A DNA stretch of 41,182 nt from Escherichia coli (GTDB lineage: Bacteria; Pseudomonadota; Gammaproteobacteria; Enterobacterales; Enterobacteriaceae): NCBI RefSeq assembly GCF_003334355.1, contig NZ_QOWP01000031.1; one strand, written 5' to 3'. A program made the translations under genes and the position numbers. The notes beneath the pieces are model-generated. The model was given only the letters and a program-made list of their open reading frames with translations. It searched no databases and was not told where the DNA came from. This document shows positions 4,246-41,182 of the stretch, one piece after another. How positions within the stretch are numbered: position 1 is the first letter of the stretch; each line of letters starts with the position of its first letter.

Positions 4246-4605
4246 TTACTCAGCAACTTCCTGCTTACGGTTACGCATCTTCGCGCCAATCCAGAACACC
4301 ATAATGACGGAGAGTACTGCCGGGAAGAAGTTAGAGCCGATATCCGGATATTCCGCACGAACTACCGTGCTGTACAGCAGTACGCCGAGAATAAAACAGG
4401 CAGCTGCCAGACCCGGCAAGCCTACCGGCATAGTGCGATTAAGATAACGTTGATGCAGGCAGTAAACCGTCAGCACCAGGGAAATAATCGGGAATACAGA
4501 AAATGGCACAATGGAGCTAAACAGCGCTGCGAAAGTACCATTAATCGATAAGCCAGCAACTAACGCCAGCAGCAGCGTACCTCTATCTTGATTTGCTTGT
4601 TTCAT
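4246..4605 (-). CDS. yijD: Inner-membrane protein YijD (DUF1422)
   Basis: 119-aa ORF, strongly hydrophobic with predicted TM helices; position between trmA and fabR as in K-12. Confidence 0.85.
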
Positions 4606-5252
4606 TACTCGTCCTTCACATTTCCCGGAATAATTGCGGTTTTCTCTTGTTCACGGCGATACCAGTAATAAGCCCCTTTCGAAATCATTCGCAGTTGCAG
4701 TACCAGTCGCTCTTCTAATTGCCGACGTTGTTCGACGCCGACGTCCAACGCCTCGGCACCCGCACTGAAGACAATTGTCACCATTGCTTCGGCTTGCGCT
4801 TCAGTAAACGCACGCGGCATATGGTTTTCGAGTTCCAGATAGTCCGCAAGTTCCGCAATGAAGTGCTGAATTTCACGCGCAACGGCGGCACGAAACGCAG
4901 CGGAGGTGCCGGAGCGTTCCCGCAATAATAACCGGAAGGCGTTAGGATTATTACCGATGAACTCCATAAATGTGGAGACCGAGGTGCGGATCACACTCCC
5001 GCCTTTGGCGATACGCTGACGCGCCTGGCGCATGAGTTGGCGTAGCATTAAACCGCTCTCATCAACCATGGTCAGACCCAGTTCGTCTACGTCGCGGAAA
5101 TGCCGATAAAAAGAGGTGGGAGCAATGCCCGCTTCACGCGCCACTTCACGCAAACTCAGGCTGGCGAAGCTGCGTTCAGCACTTAATTGGCTAAATGCGG
5201 CTTCCACCAGCGAACGGCGGGTTTTTTCTTTTTGTTGCGCTCTTACGCCCAT
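4605..5252 (-). CDS. fabR: TetR-family repressor of unsaturated fatty-acid synthesis FabR
   Basis: ORF-track 247-aa protein trimmed to the internal Met ([20 protein letters not shown]...), giving 215 aa; helix-turn-helix region recognisable; cat at 5250-5252. Confidence 0.85.
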
Positions 5253-5585
5253 CACGATGTCTGAATCCTTGCCAAAAGTACTGCTGGCACTATACCAGAG
5301 AATGAACATACTGGATTGCTCCAGTATTGTGAATGAACGGTAACGCAATAAAACATATTTACTGCAATTCTTTGGCCGGTTCTTTTACGTACAGCGGAAA
5401 CCTGCCGCTTAAACGGAGAGTATCGTCGATAAAAATCCAATAAAACGTCAGGGCAAAAGTAAGAAACAGACAAAGCAAAGGCCGCTCAGGATATAGCCAG
5501 ATAAATGACGGGGATCAATTGGCTTACCCGCGATAAAATGTTACCATTCTGTTGCTTTTATGTATAAGAACAGGTAAGCCCTACC

Positions 5586-11528: not shown

Positions 11529-12680
11529 ATGAAAAACAAATTACCGCCATTTATCGAGATTTACCGCGCTCTGATTGCCACACCTTCAATAAGCGCCACG
11601 GAAGAGGCACTCGATCAAAGCAATGCAGATTTAATCACTCTGCTGGCGGACTGGTTTAAAGATTTGGGCTTCAATGTGGAAGTGCAGCCTGTTCCAGGAA
11701 CTCGCAACAAATTCAATATGCTGGCAAGTATCGGACAGGGGGCTGGCGGCTTGTTGCTGGCGGGGCATACCGATACGGTGCCATTTGATGACGGTCGCTG
11801 GACGCGCGATCCGTTTACACTGACGGAGCATGACGGCAAGCTTTACGGCTTAGGCACCGCCGACATGAAAGGCTTTTTTGCGTTTATCCTTGATGCGCTA
11901 CGCGATGTCGACGTCACGAAACTGAAAAAACCGCTCTACATTCTGGCGACTGCTGATGAAGAAACCAGTATGGCCGGAGCGCGTTATTTTGCCGAAACTA
12001 CCGCCCTGCGCCCGGATTGCGCCATCATTGGCGAACCGACGTCACTACAACCGGTACGCGCACATAAAGGTCATATCTCTAACGCCATCCGTATTCAGGG
12101 CCAGTCGGGGCACTCCAGCGATCCAGCACGCGGAGTTAACGCTATCGAACTAATGCACGACGCCATCGGGCATATTTTGCAATTGCGCGATAACCTGAAA
12201 GAACGTTATCACTACGAAGCGTTTACCGTGCCATACCCTACGCTCAACCTCGGGCATATTCACGGTGGCGACGCTTCTAACCGTATTTGCGCTTGCTGTG
12301 AGTTGCATATGGATATTCGTCCGCTGCCTGGCATGACACTCAATGAACTTAATGGTTTGCTCAACGATGCATTGGCTCCGGTGAGCGAACGCTGGCCGGG
12401 CCGTCTGACGGTCGACGAGCTGCATCCGCCGATCCCTGGCTATGAATGCCCACCGAATCATCAACTGGTTGAAGTGGTTGAGAAATTGCTCGGAGCAAAA
12501 ACCGAAGTGGTGAATTACTGTACCGAAGCGCCGTTTATTCAAACGTTATGCCCGACGCTGGTGCTCGGTCCGGGTTCCATCAATCAAGCTCATCAGCCTG
12601 ATGAATATCTGGAGACGCGGTTTATTAAACCCACCCGTGAGTTGATTATCCAGGTAATTCACCATTTTTGCTGGCATTAA
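11529..12680 (+). CDS. argE: Acetylornithine deacetylase ArgE
   Basis: ORF-track protein trimmed to [26 protein letters not shown]... (383 aa); M20 peptidase family; atg at 11529. Confidence 0.9.
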
Positions 12681-12683
12681 AAC

Positions 12684-12785
12684 GTAGGCCGGATAAGGCG
12701 CTCGCGCCGCATCCGGCACCGTTGCCAAACTCCTGTGCCGCAATAATGTCGGATGCGATACTTGCGCATCTTATCCGACCTACAC
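12684..12785. repeat. REP/BIME cluster (two inverted REP units)
   Basis: GTAGGCCGGATAAGGCGCTCGCGCCGCATCCGGCAC and GTCGGATGCGATACTTGCGCATCTTATCCGAC: imperfect palindromes with the GCCGGATAAGGCG...CATCCGGC REP signature. Confidence 0.8.
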
Positions 12786-13031
12786 CTTTGGTGTTACTTG
12801 GGGCGATTTTTTAACATTTCCATAAGTTACGCTTATTTAAAGCGTCGTGAATTTAATGACGTAAATTCCTGCTATTTATTCGTTTGCTGAAGCGATTTCG
12901 CAGCATTTGACGTCACCGCTTTTACGTGGCTTTATAAAAGACGACGAAAAACAAAGCCCGAGCATATTCGCGCCAATGCGACGTGAAGGATACAGGGCTA
13001 TCAAACGATAAGATGGGGTGTCTGGGGTAAT

Positions 13032-27094: not shown

Positions 27095-28198
27095 ATGGAC
27101 CGCATTATTCAATCACCGGGTAAATACATCCAGGGCGCTGATGTGATTAATCGTCTGGGCGAATACCTGAAGCCGCTGGCAGAACGCTGGTTAGTGGTGG
27201 GTGACAAATTTGTTTTAGGTTTTGCTCAATCCACTGTCGAGAAAAGCTTTAAAGATGCTGGACTGGTAGTAGAAATTGCGCCGTTTGGCGGTGAATGTTC
27301 GCAAAATGAGATCGACCGTCTGCGTGGCATCGCGGAGACTGCGCAGTGTGGCGCAATTCTCGGTATCGGTGGCGGAAAAACCCTCGATACTGCCAAAGCA
27401 CTGGCACATTTCATGGGTGTTCCGGTAGCGATCGCACCGACTATCGCCTCTACCGATGCACCGTGCAGCGCATTGTCTGTTATCTACACCGATGAGGGTG
27501 AGTTTGACCGCTATCTGCTGTTGCCAAATAACCCGAATATGGTCATTGTCGACACCAAAATCGTCGCTGGCGCACCTGCACGTCTGTTAGCGGCGGGTAT
27601 CGGCGATGCGCTGGCAACCTGGTTTGAAGCGCGTGCCTGCTCTCGTAGCGGCGCGACCACCATGGCGGGCGGCAAGTGCACCCAGGCTGCGCTGGCACTG
27701 GCTGAACTGTGCTACAACACCCTGCTGGAAGAAGGCGAAAAAGCGATGCTTGCTGCCGAACAGCATGTAGTGACTCCGGCGCTGGAGCGCGTGATTGAAG
27801 CGAACACCTATTTAAGCGGTGTAGGCTTTGAAAGTGGTGGTCTGGCTGCGGCGCACGCAGTGCATAACGGCCTGACCGCTATCCCGGACGCGCATCACTA
27901 TTATCACGGTGAAAAAGTGGCATTTGGTACGCTGACGCAGCTGGTTCTGGAAAACGCACCGGTTGAGGAAATCGAAACCGTAGCTGCACTTAGCCATGCG
28001 GTAGGTTTGCCAATAACTCTCGCTCAACTGGATATTAAAGAAGATGTCCCGGCGAAAATGCGAATTGTGGCAGAAGCGGCATGTGCAGAAGGTGAAACCA
28101 TCCACAACATGCCTGGCGGCGCGACGCCAGATCAGGTTTACGCCGCTCTGCTGGTAGCCGACCAGTACGGTCAGCGTTTCCTGCAAGAGTGGGAATAA
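27095..28198 (+). CDS. gldA: Glycerol dehydrogenase GldA
   Basis: Trimmed to [24 protein letters not shown]... (367 aa); iron-containing alcohol dehydrogenase family; atg at 27095. Confidence 0.92.
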
Positions 28199-28205
28199 CC
28201 TACTC

Positions 28206-28230
28206 CAAACTCCCGGCTTGTCCGGGAGTT
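28206..28230 (+). terminator. Hairpin immediately after gldA (possible terminator)
   Basis: AAACTCCCGG-CTTGT-CCGGGAGTTT: perfect 10-bp stem, but only a weak T-tract follows, so function as an intrinsic terminator is uncertain. Confidence 0.45.
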
Positions 28231-28243
28231 TGAACGCAAAATT

Positions 28244-28343
28244 GCCTGATGCGCTACGCTTATCAGGCCTACGCAATCTCTGCAATATATTGAATTTGCG
28301 TGCTTTTGTAGGCCGGATAAGGCGTTCACTCCGCATCCGGCAC
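28244..28343. repeat. REP/BIME cluster
   Basis: GCCTGATGCGCTACGCTTATCAGGCCTACG ... TGTAGGCCGGATAAGGCGTTCACTCCGCATCCGGCAC; almost the same arrangement as the cluster at 38083-38181. Confidence 0.8.
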
Positions 28344-28472
28344 TCTGTGCCAGTAATCTGAAACTCCCACGTTGTTCAGGAATTTTTTATCCGCTTCTGG
28401 ACATTTTCTCTACAGAACAATCGTTAGCCCGGAAGGTCGAATCTGTGACTCTTATTTTCACGGACGAACCAG

Positions 28473-29090
28473 ATGAAAGCTTCACTGGCGCTGCTCAGCC
28501 TGCTAACGGCATTTACCAGCCACTCCTTAAAATCTCCCGCCGTTCCACCAACCGTGGTACAAATCCAGGCCAATACCAACCTTGCCATCGCAGACGGTGC
28601 CAGACAGCAAATTGGCAGCACGCTATTTTACGATCCGGCGTATGTGCAGCTTACTTATCCTGGCGGTGATGTTCCGCAAGAACGCGGTGTATGTTCCGAT
28701 GTGGTGATCCGCGCATTGCGCAGCCAGAAGGTCGATTTGCAGAAACTGGTTCACGAAGATATGGCGAAGAATTTTGCTGAGTACCCGCAAAAATGGAAGT
28801 TAAAGCGCCCGGACAGCAACATCGATCACCGTCGGGTGCCTAATCTGGAAACCTGGTTTAGCCGCCATGATAAAACACGCCCCACCAGCAAGAACCCCAG
28901 TGACTATCAAGCGGGCGATATTGTCTCCTGGCGACTGGATAACGGGCTGGCACATATTGGGGTGGTTTCAGATGGCTTCGCCCGCGACGGTACGCCGCTG
29001 GTGATACATAACATTGGCGCAGGCGCGCAGGAAGAAGATGTGCTGTTTAACTGGCGGATGGTGGGGCATTATCGTTATTTTGTTAAATAA
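28473..29090 (+). CDS. yijF: DUF1287-family protein YijF (predicted secreted)
   Basis: 205-aa ORF with N-terminal signal-peptide-like segment (MKASLALLSLLTAFTSHS); synteny with K-12 yijF. Confidence 0.8.
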   Translation: MKASLALLSLLTAFTSHSLKSPAVPPTVVQIQANTNLAIADGARQQIGSTLFYDPAYVQLTYPGGDVPQERGVCSDVVIRALRSQKVDLQKLVHEDMAKNFAEYPQKWKLKRPDSNIDHRRVPNLETWFSRHDKTRPTSKNPSDYQAGDIVSWRLDNGLAHIGVVSDGFARDGTPLVIHNIGAGAQEEDVLFNWRMVGHYRYFVK

Positions 29091-29116
29091 GAGATCGCCC
29101 CACATGAAGAAAAAAT

Positions 29117-30022
29117 TCAGATCCTTTTTACACTGACGGCTTCTTTTTTCTTACGGCTCACCAGCGCCAGTGCCAGCACAATCAGCACAATACCGCTACC
29201 CTCAACCGCGCCAGGATTCTCACCGAGCAGCCACCAGGAAAAGAGTACGCCGCAAACGGGAACGGCCAGTGTGCTTAAGCTGGCAATACTGGCAGGCAAG
29301 TTTTTCAATACAAACAACCATAAGCTCCACGCCAGCGCCGTCGCCAGAATCGCACTGTAGGCCAGCGCCCAGAACACGGTGGGTTGCCAGTCAATTTCAC
29401 GTTGCGGTACCAGTAAAGCGACCACACTCATCACCAGCGCCGCATACAGCATCTGCCAGGATGTTAACGACAATAAATCCACGCGCGGATGACGGGCGTA
29501 AAGGCGTTTAGCGACAATGGCGCTCGCCCCCCAACTGACACCGGAGAGGATCGCCAGCATGGCGCTTTTCATCGAAGAGAAATCGAGTTGCCACGGCTGC
29601 AACACCAAAAATAAACCGAAAGCGGCAATCAGAATCGCGAAATATTGCCCACGTCGCAGGCGTTCACCGAGAAACAACGCGGCGAAAATCACTACCCAGA
29701 ACGGCATGGTATAGCTCAGGATCGCTACTTTCCCCGCTCCGCCGCTGACCAGCGCCCACTGCGCCAGACCAACCATCCCACAGGTTTGTAACAGGGCAAT
29801 GGCTAAGGTGTAATTAAACGGCGTCGGGCGCATTCCGCGACCACGTAATAAAAGGACGATGAATAAAACGAGAGCGCCGAAAATGCAGCGTAAGGCGGTG
29901 AAGTCGAAGGCACCGATGTAGCTGGTGACTTGCTTCATGAAAATCCAGCTATAACTCCAGATAAGTGTGAGCACAACCAGGCCACTGATTGCCAGTGGGT
30001 TGCTCTTTCCTGCGGCAGACAT
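29117..30022 (-). CDS. yijE: EamA/DMT-family transporter YijE
   Basis: Trimmed to [26 protein letters not shown]... (301 aa); about 10 TM segments; cat at 30020-30022. Confidence 0.85.
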
Positions 30023-30069
30023 GAGAGATCCAGTGTGTAGTTTTCCTGTGGACACTATACGCCGGTAAA

Positions 30070-30106
30070 GAAACTTCAGCGACTGCCTGAAAGGCAGTCG
30101 CTGAAG
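30070..30106 (-). terminator. Rho-independent terminator of katG
   Basis: Minus-strand CTTCAGCGACTGCC-TTTCA-GGCAGTCGCTGAAG followed by TTTCTTT, just downstream of the katG stop. Confidence 0.7.
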
Positions 30107-30115
30107 AAGGTCAGA

Positions 30116-32420
<2,305 letters not shown>

Positions 32421-38053: not shown

Positions 38054-38082
38054 AGCAAAAAAGAGCGGCGCGGAGTGGAATC

Positions 38083-38181
38083 GCCTGATGCGCTACGCTT
38101 ATCAGGCCTACGTCATATTGCAATTTATTGAATTTGCACGAACTTGTAGGCCGGATAAGGCGTTCACGCCGCATCCGGCAT
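38083..38181. repeat. REP/BIME cluster
   Basis: GCCTGATGCGCTACGCTTATCAGGCCTACG ... TGTAGGCCGGATAAGGCGTTCACGCCGCATCCGGCA. Confidence 0.8.
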
Positions 38182-38236: not shown

Positions 38237-38845
38237 ATGAAAAACAGGCTGCTGATCCTCAGCCTGCTGGTTTCTGTACCTGCCTTTGCCTGGCAGCCAC
38301 AAACCGGCGACATCATCTTTCAGATCTCTCGCTCATCGCAAAGTAAAGCGATCCAACTGGCGACCCATTCCGATTATAGCCACACCGGTATGCTGGTGAT
38401 ACGCAACAAAAAGCCCTACGTTTTTGAAGCGGTCGGCCCGGTGAAATACACCCCGCTCAAGCAGTGGATCGCCCATGGTGAAAAGGGCAAATACGTTGTT
38501 CGCCGCGTTGAAGGCGGACTGAGTGTTGAACAACAGCAAAAACTGGCGCAAACGGCAAAACGTTATCTCGGTAAACCGTATGATTTCAGCTTCTCATGGA
38601 GCGACGATCGCCAGTACTGTTCGGAAGTGGTGTGGAAGGTTTACCAGAACGCGCTGGGAATGCGCGTGGGCGAGCAGCAGAAGTTGAAAGAGTTCGATCT
38701 CAGCAACCCGCTGGTCCAGGCTAAGCTCAAAGAACGCTACGGCAAAAATATTCCGCTTGAGGAAACGGTAGTTTCACCACAAGCCGTTTTCGACGCGCCA
38801 CAACTCACCACAGTCGCCAAAGAGTGGCCGCTGTTTTCGTGGTAA
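38237..38845 (+). CDS. yiiX: YiiX, DUF830-family predicted periplasmic protein
   Basis: 202-aa ORF with N-terminal signal peptide (MKNRLLILSLLVSVPAFA); synteny with K-12 yiiX. Any enzymatic function is not evident from this sequence alone. Confidence 0.8.
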   Translation: MKNRLLILSLLVSVPAFAWQPQTGDIIFQISRSSQSKAIQLATHSDYSHTGMLVIRNKKPYVFEAVGPVKYTPLKQWIAHGEKGKYVVRRVEGGLSVEQQQKLAQTAKRYLGKPYDFSFSWSDDRQYCSEVVWKVYQNALGMRVGEQQKLKEFDLSNPLVQAKLKERYGKNIPLEETVVSPQAVFDAPQLTTVAKEWPLFSW

Positions 38846-38989: not shown

Positions 38990-39262
38990 ATGGTCACAGT
39001 TAACCTTCATTGCCCCCGTTGCCAGTCCGTTCAGGTTTACCGTCACGGGCAGAACCCAAAAAGACATGATCGATTCCGCGGCCGTGACTGTCACCGGGTA
39101 TTTCAGCTCAGTTACTGTTACGAGCCCCGTAAACCGGGAGTTAAAGACCAAATCGCTGAAATGACTTTCAACGGTGCCGGGGTTCGCGATACTGCCCGTA
39201 CGCTGAAAATCGGCATTAATACAGTCATCCGAACTTTAAAAAACTCTCGCCACGAAGAATAA
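38990..39262 (+). CDS. insA: IS1 InsA-like protein (zinc-finger / HTH transposition regulator)
   Basis: 90-aa ORF MVTVNLHCPRCQSVQVYRHGQNPKRHDRFRGRDCHRVFQ... with CxxC...CxxxC zinc-finger-like spacing and a C-terminal HTH-like segment (ARTLKIGINTVIRTLKN); similar to remembered canonical InsA at roughly half the positions. Confidence 0.75.
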   Translation: MVTVNLHCPRCQSVQVYRHGQNPKRHDRFRGRDCHRVFQLSYCYEPRKPGVKDQIAEMTFNGAGVRDTARTLKIGINTVIRTLKNSRHEE

Positions 39263-39696
39263 CGTCATCCCCGGTCGCTCATGCTGATGTGGCACTCATC
39301 TGCAAACTTAGTCAGCAATGGAGCTTTGTCGGCAGTAAAGCGCGACAGCACTGGTTCTGGTACGTGTACAACACGAAAACTGGTGGTGTTCTGGCCTACA
39401 CTTTTGGCCCCCGGACTGACGAAACCTGTCGTGAATTGCGGGCGCTGCTTACCCTTTTACCATCGGCATGTTGACCACTGACGAATGGGGTAGTTACGCT
39501 AGAGAGTTACCGAAGGAGAAGCATCTGACTGGTAAGATTTTTACTCAGCACATTGAGCGTAACAATCTGACCCTGAGAACCCGAATCAAACGTCTGGCCC
39601 GCAGAACCATCTGTTTCTCGCGTTCTGTAGAACTTCATGAAAAAGTCATCGGTGCTTTTATCGAAAATATATGTTCTACTAATTGGAGTCATCACC
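39240..39696 (+). pseudogene. insB: IS1 insB-like transposase gene, interrupted by a frameshift
   Basis: InsB-like sequence is split across two frames: 39289-39474 (...QWSFVGSKARQHWFWYVYNTKTGGVLAYTFGPRTDETCRELRALLTLLP) and 39468 onward (MLTTDEWGSYARELPKEKHLTGKIFTQHIERNNLTLRTRIKRLARRTICFSRSVELHEKVIGAF...), with the shift near 39445-39450; the second frame has no stop before the right inverted repeat. Confidence 0.55.
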
Positions 39697-39837
39697 CTTC
39701 TGATAAGCTTTCCTTGGATGATTACCAGACTGAATACACAGCCAAAGATTTTTACCTCATTCTGCTCTTTTTTCTCAAATGACATATATTATATTTTACA
39801 TCATATTCATAGGCATATGACATTCCCCCGCCCCCCA

Positions 39838-40074
39838 TTATGTCATTGTGGGTTGATGTTGGGCTTTCATAAAAAAAACATCTTTTTTTGAACTAGCATT
39901 AATTATATTTACTTTATATATTAAAATATTTTCTCCATCTGGAAATATTTTAGCCACACAATATAAAGCAGCTGAATCCGAATTACTGAAAAATATATTA
40001 TCATCACCCATAACTCCAGCCATTAAATGACTGGAGACTAAAGCAAGGAAATAACAACATTGTATTGCCTTCAT
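39838..40074 (-). CDS. Candidate Rhs immunity protein (78 aa, signal-peptide-like N-terminus)
   Basis: ATG 1 nt after the Rhs TAA stop (minus strand GGGAGTAATTAAAATGAAGGCA, with GGGAG as a Shine-Dalgarno-like sequence); MKAIQCCYFLALVSSHLMAGVMGDD... The ORF track's longer 90-aa version starts inside the rhs gene. Very AT-rich. Role inferred from position immediately 3' of an Rhs C-terminal domain. Confidence 0.55.
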   Translation of the reverse strand: MKAIQCCYFLALVSSHLMAGVMGDDNIFFSNSDSAALYCVAKIFPDGENILIYKVNIINASSKKDVFFMKAQHQPTMT

Positions 40075-40075
40075 T

Positions 40076-41182
40076 TTAATTACTCCCTTGCCTGATAATT
40101 GTAACTCCATTCCCTTTAGCTTTGGGATTATATTTTAGATAGGTGTTATTTGGTGTTCCCAAGTAACTACTGTATTCTTTTTTTCCCATTCCATTCATAT
40201 AAGAATTCGTTAAATCTTTGCTTGAAAAATTTAGACTATCATAAACATCATTTTCTTTTGTTACTTTATTTCCTTTATCGTCAGAGTAAAAACCGTGAGT
40301 GTGATAATCGCCTACTCTCTCTGAACCTTCAGGGCATTTTATATTTCGCAAGTCTACACTATCATTATCATTTGAACTTATCGGATTCATGGGGAAATAT
40401 TCACCTTGCTTCTTACATATTAGTCCACCATATTCTTTATTCTCGTTAATTGATTCTCCATTACACATTGCCAATGCAAATATTCCAATATCATCTATAT
40501 TTTTTGATTTAAATTCATATAATCCTAATGGATCCATGCTATTCACCGGGCTCAGCGGATATGTATACAGGTTCCATCCCCCCTTCAGCCCAATCGGATC
40601 CTGAGTGATATACCTCCCCCGCAGCGGGTCATAATAGCGGTGGCGGTTATAATACAGGCCGGACTCCTCATCATACTGCTGCCCCGGCAGGCGGATGAGC
40701 TGCTGCAGCTGGTGCGGGTTCTCTTCATTCAGCTGGTTACCCCATTCATCGTATTCCCGGCGTATTTCCAGCCAGTCAGGCCCGGTGGCTGACGTTAACT
40801 GGCTGTGGTGGTTATAGTAAAACGCCGATGCCCTGCCATCCGGCGTGGTGATGCGCGTGATGAGGCCCGTCACCACATCCGGGCTGTATTCTGTTGTCCT
40901 GCCTGCGGCATCCGTCTGTGCCCTGAGCCTGCCCACCGCGTCAAACTGACTCTGCGTGACGCTGCCGTCCGCGTGTTCCTTTTTCACCACCCGCTTCAGC
41001 CCGCCTTCGCCTGCGGTATGCAGGACTTCACGGCGGTTCAGGCTGTCGGTGATGGTGATGCGGTCCTTCTCATACTGATACGTGTAGCTTAAGCCTGCCG
41101 GGTTTAGCTGTTCTGTCACCCGCCCGTCGCTGTCGTAACGGTAACGGATTTCCGGCCGGCCCGTGTGACGGTGCGCCACCAT
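40076..41182 (-). CDS. Rhs-family polymorphic toxin, 3' portion (YD-repeat core end + DPxGL + 147-aa variable C-terminal domain); 5' end lies beyond the window
   Basis: ORF is open to the window edge; translation contains YD-repeat core sequence and the core-terminal motif ...[39 protein letters not shown], followed by a 147-aa AT-rich tail ([10 protein letters not shown]...RQGSN). Stop at 40076-40078. Confidence 0.85.

Follow-up and report, generated by a model that had tools for sequence, protein, structure and literature searches.

In a survey of papain-like enzymes published in 2023, DUF1287, the family of the Escherichia coli protein YijF, was assigned to the NlpC/P60 group and credited with a Cys-His-His triad, its function being given as unknown (PMC10318531). 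The YiiX family was described by Xu et al. in 2011 as a circularly permuted NlpC/P60 enzyme; a fatty acid was found in the hydrophobic S1 pocket of YiiX beside Cys128 and Tyr115, and a lipid amidase role was proposed in print for the protein (PMC3142127). YijE was presented in the EcoCyc paper of 2017 as a newly characterized cystine exporter, with reference to Yamamoto et al. 2015 (PMC5210515; the reference is PMID 25346166). As for YijD, a 2025 preprint reports that deletion of the gene leads to wider cells and early constriction, that the phenotypes of the mutant are correlated with those caused by deletion of tolR and of lpp, and that a YijD-green fluorescent protein fusion (YijD-GFP) clusters in the envelope at the subpoles and the septum. 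Here we have analyzed these four genes, with yijF as the main subject, in a window of 41,182 nucleotides of the E. coli chromosome, all positions being those of this whole stretch.

The part of the window at 28300-30200, which overlies yijF, yijE, and the end of katG, matched 5426 of 5426 complete E. coli genomes, several at 100% identity. In the annotation of strain K-12 and of a matching genome, the local gene order is ptsA, fsaB, gldA, and yijF, with yijE, katG, and metF on the opposite strand. A preliminary description, made from the sequence alone, had placed four conserved genes of unknown function at 28473-30022. This span corresponds exactly to two genes, yijF (28473-29090, plus strand; 205 amino acids) and yijE (29117-30022, minus strand; 301 amino acids from the annotated ATG, or 312 if an upstream GTG is mechanically taken as the start), which are convergent and unrelated; yijD (4246-4605, minus strand; 119 amino acids) and yiiX (38237-38845, plus strand; 202 amino acids) are located elsewhere. 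The description was right that all four are intact, as they contain no internal stops and have the same lengths as in K-12. The yijF and yijD genes are 100% identical to those of K-12 at the nucleotide level, and the products of yijE and yiiX differ by 1 and 3 amino acids, respectively. The four are ordinary intact core genes of E. coli, and no two of them make up one system. The genes and their families, the structure of YiiX, the assignment of YijE, and the papain-like class of DUF1287 are all already known.

Our best overall reading, to which we assign a probability of roughly 0.7, is that YijF is a canonical NlpC/P60-fold amidase of the periplasm that probably acts on peptidoglycan, taken together with the readings of YijE, YiiX, and YijD given below. 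Its value lies in a testable hypothesis for yijF, one of the remaining y-genes of E. coli, whose product is a widespread, highly conserved, and predicted exported cysteine enzyme. The four genes of the window are well catalogued, and the importance of the reading as a discovery is small.

Fold, catalytic residues, and export of YijF

YijF matched DUF1287 (PF06940) over practically the entire model (E value, 3.9e-74; model positions 2-163 of 163), and a weak match to CHAP was also observed (E value, 0.0027). The family is large, with 2976 representative clusters at E values up to 0.001, and YijF is 54-71% identical to the listed relatives from outside Escherichia, which include members from Neisseria, Xanthomonadaceae, and Akkermansiaceae. 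Residue conservation was examined in an alignment of 103 diverse sequences of the family. Cys74 and His161 occur in every sequence and His179 in 99% of them; the respective codons are found at 28692-28694, 28953-28955, and 29007-29009 on the plus strand. The conserved motif Y62-P-G-G-D66 ... G72-V-C74-S-D76 is a hallmark of NlpC/P60 proteins. The family also harbors a specific insert of approximately 45 residues, at roughly 100-147, which carries an invariant NIDHRRVPN sequence, and the charged residues around N116-I-D-H-R-R-V-P-N124 are conserved in the same alignment.

Structure prediction and fold comparison, proposed in the preliminary description as a check on all four genes, were carried out for YijF. 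The AlphaFold2 (AF2) model has a predicted local distance difference test score (pLDDT) of 94.1 and displays the papain-like alpha+beta fold of the canonical NlpC/P60 superfamily. Cys74 is positioned at the start of a helix (residues 74-83), followed by His161 in a strand (160-169) and His179 in another (175-180), which is the arrangement of NlpC/P60 enzymes: a conserved Cys at the N terminus of a helix and then a His and a third polar residue on strands. A Foldseek search with the model agreed with an NlpC/P60 fold, and the DUF1460 N-acetylmuramic acid (MurNAc)-L-Ala amidase was also among the matches. When the family profile of YijF was aligned with K-12 MepS with hhalign (probability, 84.7; E value, 6.7e-6), Cys was paired with Cys and His with His, and the YijF insert stayed unmatched. 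The fold and the Cys-His-His triad of YijF are thereby shown at the level of a predicted model. This assignment reproduces what is already in the literature.

The N terminus of YijF reads MK followed by ASLALLSLLTAF and TSHS, and a probable Sec signal peptide corresponds to residues 1-18 (MKASLALLSLLTAFTSHS; 28473-28526, plus strand), with the cleavage site deduced from the sequence. A signal peptide-like start fits the rest of the family, in which a hydrophobic N terminus was observed in 99 of 122 representatives and a lipobox in 20. In the AF2 model, the N terminus forms a helix (residues 4-16) at lower confidence. Export of YijF to the periplasm is thus supported by features of its sequence. 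The E. coli YijF proteins comprise a full-length cluster (5202 members) and several clusters of shortened products (129-167 amino acids, with roughly 120-180 members each), which may reflect disruption or miscalling of yijF in some strains.

We propose that YijF would be exported to the periplasm by the Sec pathway via its N-terminal signal peptide and would function there as a nonpermuted NlpC/P60-fold cysteine amidase. Cys74 would act as the nucleophile and form an acyl-thioester intermediate, His161 would serve as the general base, and His179, the third residue of the triad, would orient His161. The charged NIDHRRVPN insert probably shapes part of the substrate site. In the likeliest reaction, YijF would hydrolyze an amide bond of a peptidoglycan stem peptide or of a muropeptide; we infer this substrate from the best structural relatives of YijF and from its conservation across distant bacteria.

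A further step can be suggested only tentatively, at somewhat less than even odds: that YijF and the DUF1287 family represent a class of periplasmic NlpC/P60-fold amidases not assayed before, in which NIDHRRVPN confers a specificity unlike that of the known E. coli enzymes. If this were the case, YijF would either cleave a periplasmic amide other than peptidoglycan or add a fifth member, with its own bond preference, to the peptidoglycan-peptide hydrolases.

YiiX, YijE, and YijD

The structure in PDB entry 2if6 is that of YiiX (E value, 4.4e-124; residues 18-202 covered). The protein matched PF05708 (E value, 1e-48), a family of YaeF/YiiX proteins, and scored well over the cutoff of the NCBIfam equivalog YiiX (NF007458; 357 versus 216 bits). 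Whereas the earlier family labels for YijF (DUF1287) and YijE (EamA) held, that for YiiX, DUF830, is outdated; we take it to be the former name of PF05708, which is now designated Peptidase_C92 in Pfam. The protein from the window retains His49, Tyr115, and its single Cys, Cys128, and with a hidden Markov model (HMM) score over the cutoff, a permuted order of His and then Cys, and the conserved Tyr, it has the features of the Peptidase_C92/YiiX family. Its N terminus consists of MKNR, LLILSLLVSV, and PAFA, and residues 1-17 or 1-18 form a probable signal peptide. As expected if the YiiX signal peptide MKNRLLILSLLVSVPAFA is cleaved, the chain in 2if6 begins at residue 18. The signal peptides previously noted for YijF and YiiX are therefore both supported by sequence features, that of YiiX also by the start of the crystallized chain. 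YiiX would be a periplasmic permuted NlpC/P60 (C92) enzyme. The fatty acid in its hydrophobic pocket suggests that its substrate is probably a lipid, a lipoamino acid, or a lipoprotein, whose fatty acyl group it would cleave or transfer.

The view that no function could be assigned from sequence to any of the four genes was consequently too strong for yijF and yiiX, whose products are recognizable papain-like cysteine enzymes of the NlpC/P60 superfamily, canonical and circularly permuted, respectively. Published experimental functions, which the preliminary description had named as what would overturn it, exist to differing degrees: a function for yijE, a structure and a proposal for yiiX, and phenotypes only for yijD. 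For yijF, no experimental function was found in the literature under yijF, DUF1287, PF06940, or COG3738.

YijE contains two EamA domains (residues 12-141 and 152-289; E values, 1.6e-24 and 3.5e-22), each with approximately five transmembrane helices, and its hydropathy profile displays about 10 hydrophobic segments, as expected for a member of the drug/metabolite transporter (DMT)/EamA group. Against the named NCBIfam exporter equivalogs, its scores were 86, 66.8, and 36.6 bits, with cutoffs of 230, 270, and 472 bits, respectively. As the scores are far under the cutoffs of these exporter families, which include those of YedA, EamA, and YddG, YijE represents its own DMT subfamily. RefSeq product names for the protein are "cystine transporter YijE" and "cystine exporter." In the original work of 2015, yijE was reportedly induced by cystine, the knockout strain was more sensitive to cystine, and overexpression brought relief. 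The assignment as a cystine exporter is published but indirect. YijE would be a 10-helix DMT/EamA exporter, and the reported relief of cystine toxicity would reflect cystine efflux.

The katG gene precedes yijE on the same strand, with a gap of 93 bp between the two (30023-30115). The gap contains an intrinsic-terminator-like hairpin after katG and just upstream of yijE (30074-30106, minus strand; 15-bp stem; tail, TTTCTTTACC), which is strong but has a weak T tract. A promoter scan of 28100-30300 gave no match to the sigma-70 consensus. A transcriptome study from 2025 reported induction of yijE under H2O2 (PMC12238033), and it is thus possible that yijE is transcribed by read-through from the OxyR-driven katG promoter.

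YijD matched DUF1422 (E value, 5.1e-53) and exceeded the cutoff of NF008278 (203.4 versus 127 bits). With four hydrophobic segments in 119 residues, it is a small four-helix membrane protein of the YijD family, and the previous notion of a small membrane protein encoded next to fabR was correct. The fabR gene (4605-5309, minus strand; 100% nucleotide identity to K-12) is the operon partner of yijD in the K-12 annotation and directly precedes it. The stop codon of fabR and the start codon of yijD overlap as TAATG (4601-4605), which suggests translational coupling. Together with the phenotypes in the 2025 preprint, the operon with fabR implies that YijD, as a four-helix inner-membrane protein, probably acts in membrane or envelope homeostasis.

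Evidence against the preferred reading and alternative explanations

A number of results weigh against our reading of YijF as a peptidoglycan amidase and of YiiX and YijE as described above. YijF gave no significant match to the HMM of PF00877 (NLPC_P60), to which 1 of 18 long YijF homologs had a match (E value, 0.014); we take this to mean that YijF represents a separate family inside the superfamily but outside PF00877. No NCBIfam model matched YijF. In sequence searches of PDB, the single YijF sequence found no match, and the family profile produced only chance-level matches. The literature searched contained no biochemical assay for any DUF1287 protein, and the data specific to yijF were limited to induction by vanillin and a weak match in an overproduction screen for DNA damage. 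Among eight DUF1287 loci outside E. coli, the neighboring genes differed at all loci except between close relatives, and no conserved partner pointing to peptidoglycan was present. The domain fusions in the 18 long homologs (FG-GAP repeats, one DUF218, and one Fe-ADH) were uninformative for function, and the Fe-ADH fusion, in protein P0121, is probably a run-on of the neighboring alcohol dehydrogenase gene gldA. No enzymatic activity of E. coli YiiX was found to be reported in the literature. The evidence behind the cystine assignment of YijE is said to consist of growth phenotypes and reporter assays rather than transport measurements.

With regard to the substrate of YijF, an alternative is that the enzyme acts on an amide or thioester outside peptidoglycan, the candidates being an acyl group of a lipoprotein or lipid, a glutathione or polyamine conjugate, and a periplasmic protein. 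The neutral gene neighborhoods and fusions described above leave room for such substrates, but the strongest structural matches of YijF are all peptidoglycan hydrolases, and conservation at about 50-60% identity across distant bacteria fits a universal substrate, such as peptidoglycan, so that we consider this unlikely. Slightly less probable still, in our view, is a MurNAc-L-alanine amidase activity like that of the DUF1460 enzymes, the kind also matched by Foldseek, by which YijF would strip stem peptides off muropeptides or anhydromuropeptides with no cut within the peptide. An amidase acting on an amide bond of the stem peptide or muropeptide remains the preferred reading for YijF. Concerning YijE, the protein may be an EamA-family exporter for a broader range of amino acids or metabolites, with a physiological substrate other than cystine. 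Promiscuity is common among DMT exporters, YijE scores far under the cutoff of every named exporter equivalog, and the published cystine evidence is indirect. On the other hand, cystine export has been accepted by the curators of EcoCyc and RefSeq, and in the 2025 transcriptome, an independent source, yijE was induced along with cysteine-metabolism genes under oxidative conditions; we find a broader substrate conceivable but doubtful and retain cystine efflux as the function of YijE.

The adjacency of yijF and yijE, whose stop codons are only 26 bp apart, raises the question of whether the two work together, for example, as an enzyme and the transporter of its product or substrate. The genes are convergent, so cotranscription is impossible. 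In Salmonella-labelled contigs (L006 and L007, 4742-5682), the order is gldA-yijF-katG, the gap between yijF and katG is only 57 bp, and yijE is absent; judging from these sequences, yijE would have been either inserted in the Escherichia lineage or lost in the Salmonella-labelled one. DUF1287 genes had no EamA neighbor in the other taxa examined. Moreover, the divergence of the window at 28000-30600 from K-12 is mosaic, with differences at 0 of 618 nucleotides in yijF, 28 of 906 in yijE, and about 30 of 500 at the 3' end of katG, which points to a recombination boundary between the convergent yijF and yijE genes. On the basis of the convergent orientation, the absence of yijE in the Salmonella-labelled contigs, and the different recombination histories, we rejected a functional link between the two genes, which we regard as very improbable.

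Surrounding elements and comparison with known systems

A pair of bacterial interspersed mosaic elements/repetitive extragenic palindromes (BIME/REP) of about 103 bp is found in the same orientation upstream of both yijF and yiiX. The copy in the gldA-yijF intergenic region (28240-28342) is 88% identical to that in the metJ-yiiX intergenic region (38079-38180). These copies account for the multiple matching places per genome observed for 28300-30200 and for the matches to Rfam, which were all sub-threshold and REP derived (ES036 and naRNA4). Elsewhere in the window, one 500-bp bin in the argE-ppc intergenic region (12501-13000) contains 25 differences from K-12, and a short internal duplicate BLAST match was observed in the same region at 12683-12784.

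The location of yiiX directly beside an IS1/Rhs segment, as previously noted, was confirmed. A remnant of an IS1-family transposase with frameshifts lies at 38990-39782 (plus strand) in the form of open reading frame (ORF) fragments with partial matches to NF033558 under the cutoff, and a related genome annotates the corresponding IS1 as frameshifted. Next comes a fragment of an Rhs core protein (40076-41182, minus strand; matches to RHS_core and Rhs_assc_core), which comprises the C-terminal portion and runs off the end of the window. It contains RHS repeats and, after the core motif DPLGL, a DUF4329 tip (E value, 2.3e-15). Within 39838-41182 on the minus strand, the Rhs fragment is followed by a candidate immunity gene, an ORF of 90 amino acids that has a hydrophobic N terminus and matched no family. 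K-12 is without the IS1/Rhs segment, and there rpmE adjoins yiiX.

When the four proteins are compared with known systems, YijD corresponds to its family (DUF1422, NF008278) over its full length, and the fabR-yijD arrangement is that of K-12, with no difference. YijE resembles the O-acetylserine/cysteine exporter EamA (YdeD), YedA, and YddG in having two EamA domains and approximately 10 transmembrane segments, and the sulfur-amino-acid-related substrate reported for it likens it to exporters of the EamA (YdeD) type. It differs from all three in scoring far under their equivalog cutoffs. YiiX in the window has the His49...Cys128 order and the Tyr115 of the permuted NlpC/P60 (Peptidase_C92) proteins, which include 2if6, BcPPNE (3kw0), and LnsA from Staphylococcus aureus. 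LnsA is a distant relative of YiiX (18% identical) and takes part in lipoprotein N-acylation with its partner, LnsB.

YijF can be set against two kinds of enzymes. It differs from MepS (Spr) and the canonical NlpC/P60 (MEROPS C40) endopeptidases in lacking a significant match to PF00877 and is only 13-20% identical to the solved canonical structures of the MepS type. Compared with these enzymes, it has the insert of approximately 45 residues with NIDHRRVPN and an N-terminal helical extension, and it is predicted to be a soluble exported protein, in contrast to the lipoprotein of the MepS-type case. With the DUF1460 amidases (BACUNI_02947; PDB 4q68, 4h4j, and 4q5k), YijF shares the superfamily and the Cys-His-His triad, and the overall size is similar, with a Foldseek template modeling (TM) score of about 0.49. 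Two of the four "unknown" genes in the window, yijF and yiiX, therefore belong to one enzyme superfamily, in its canonical and permuted forms.
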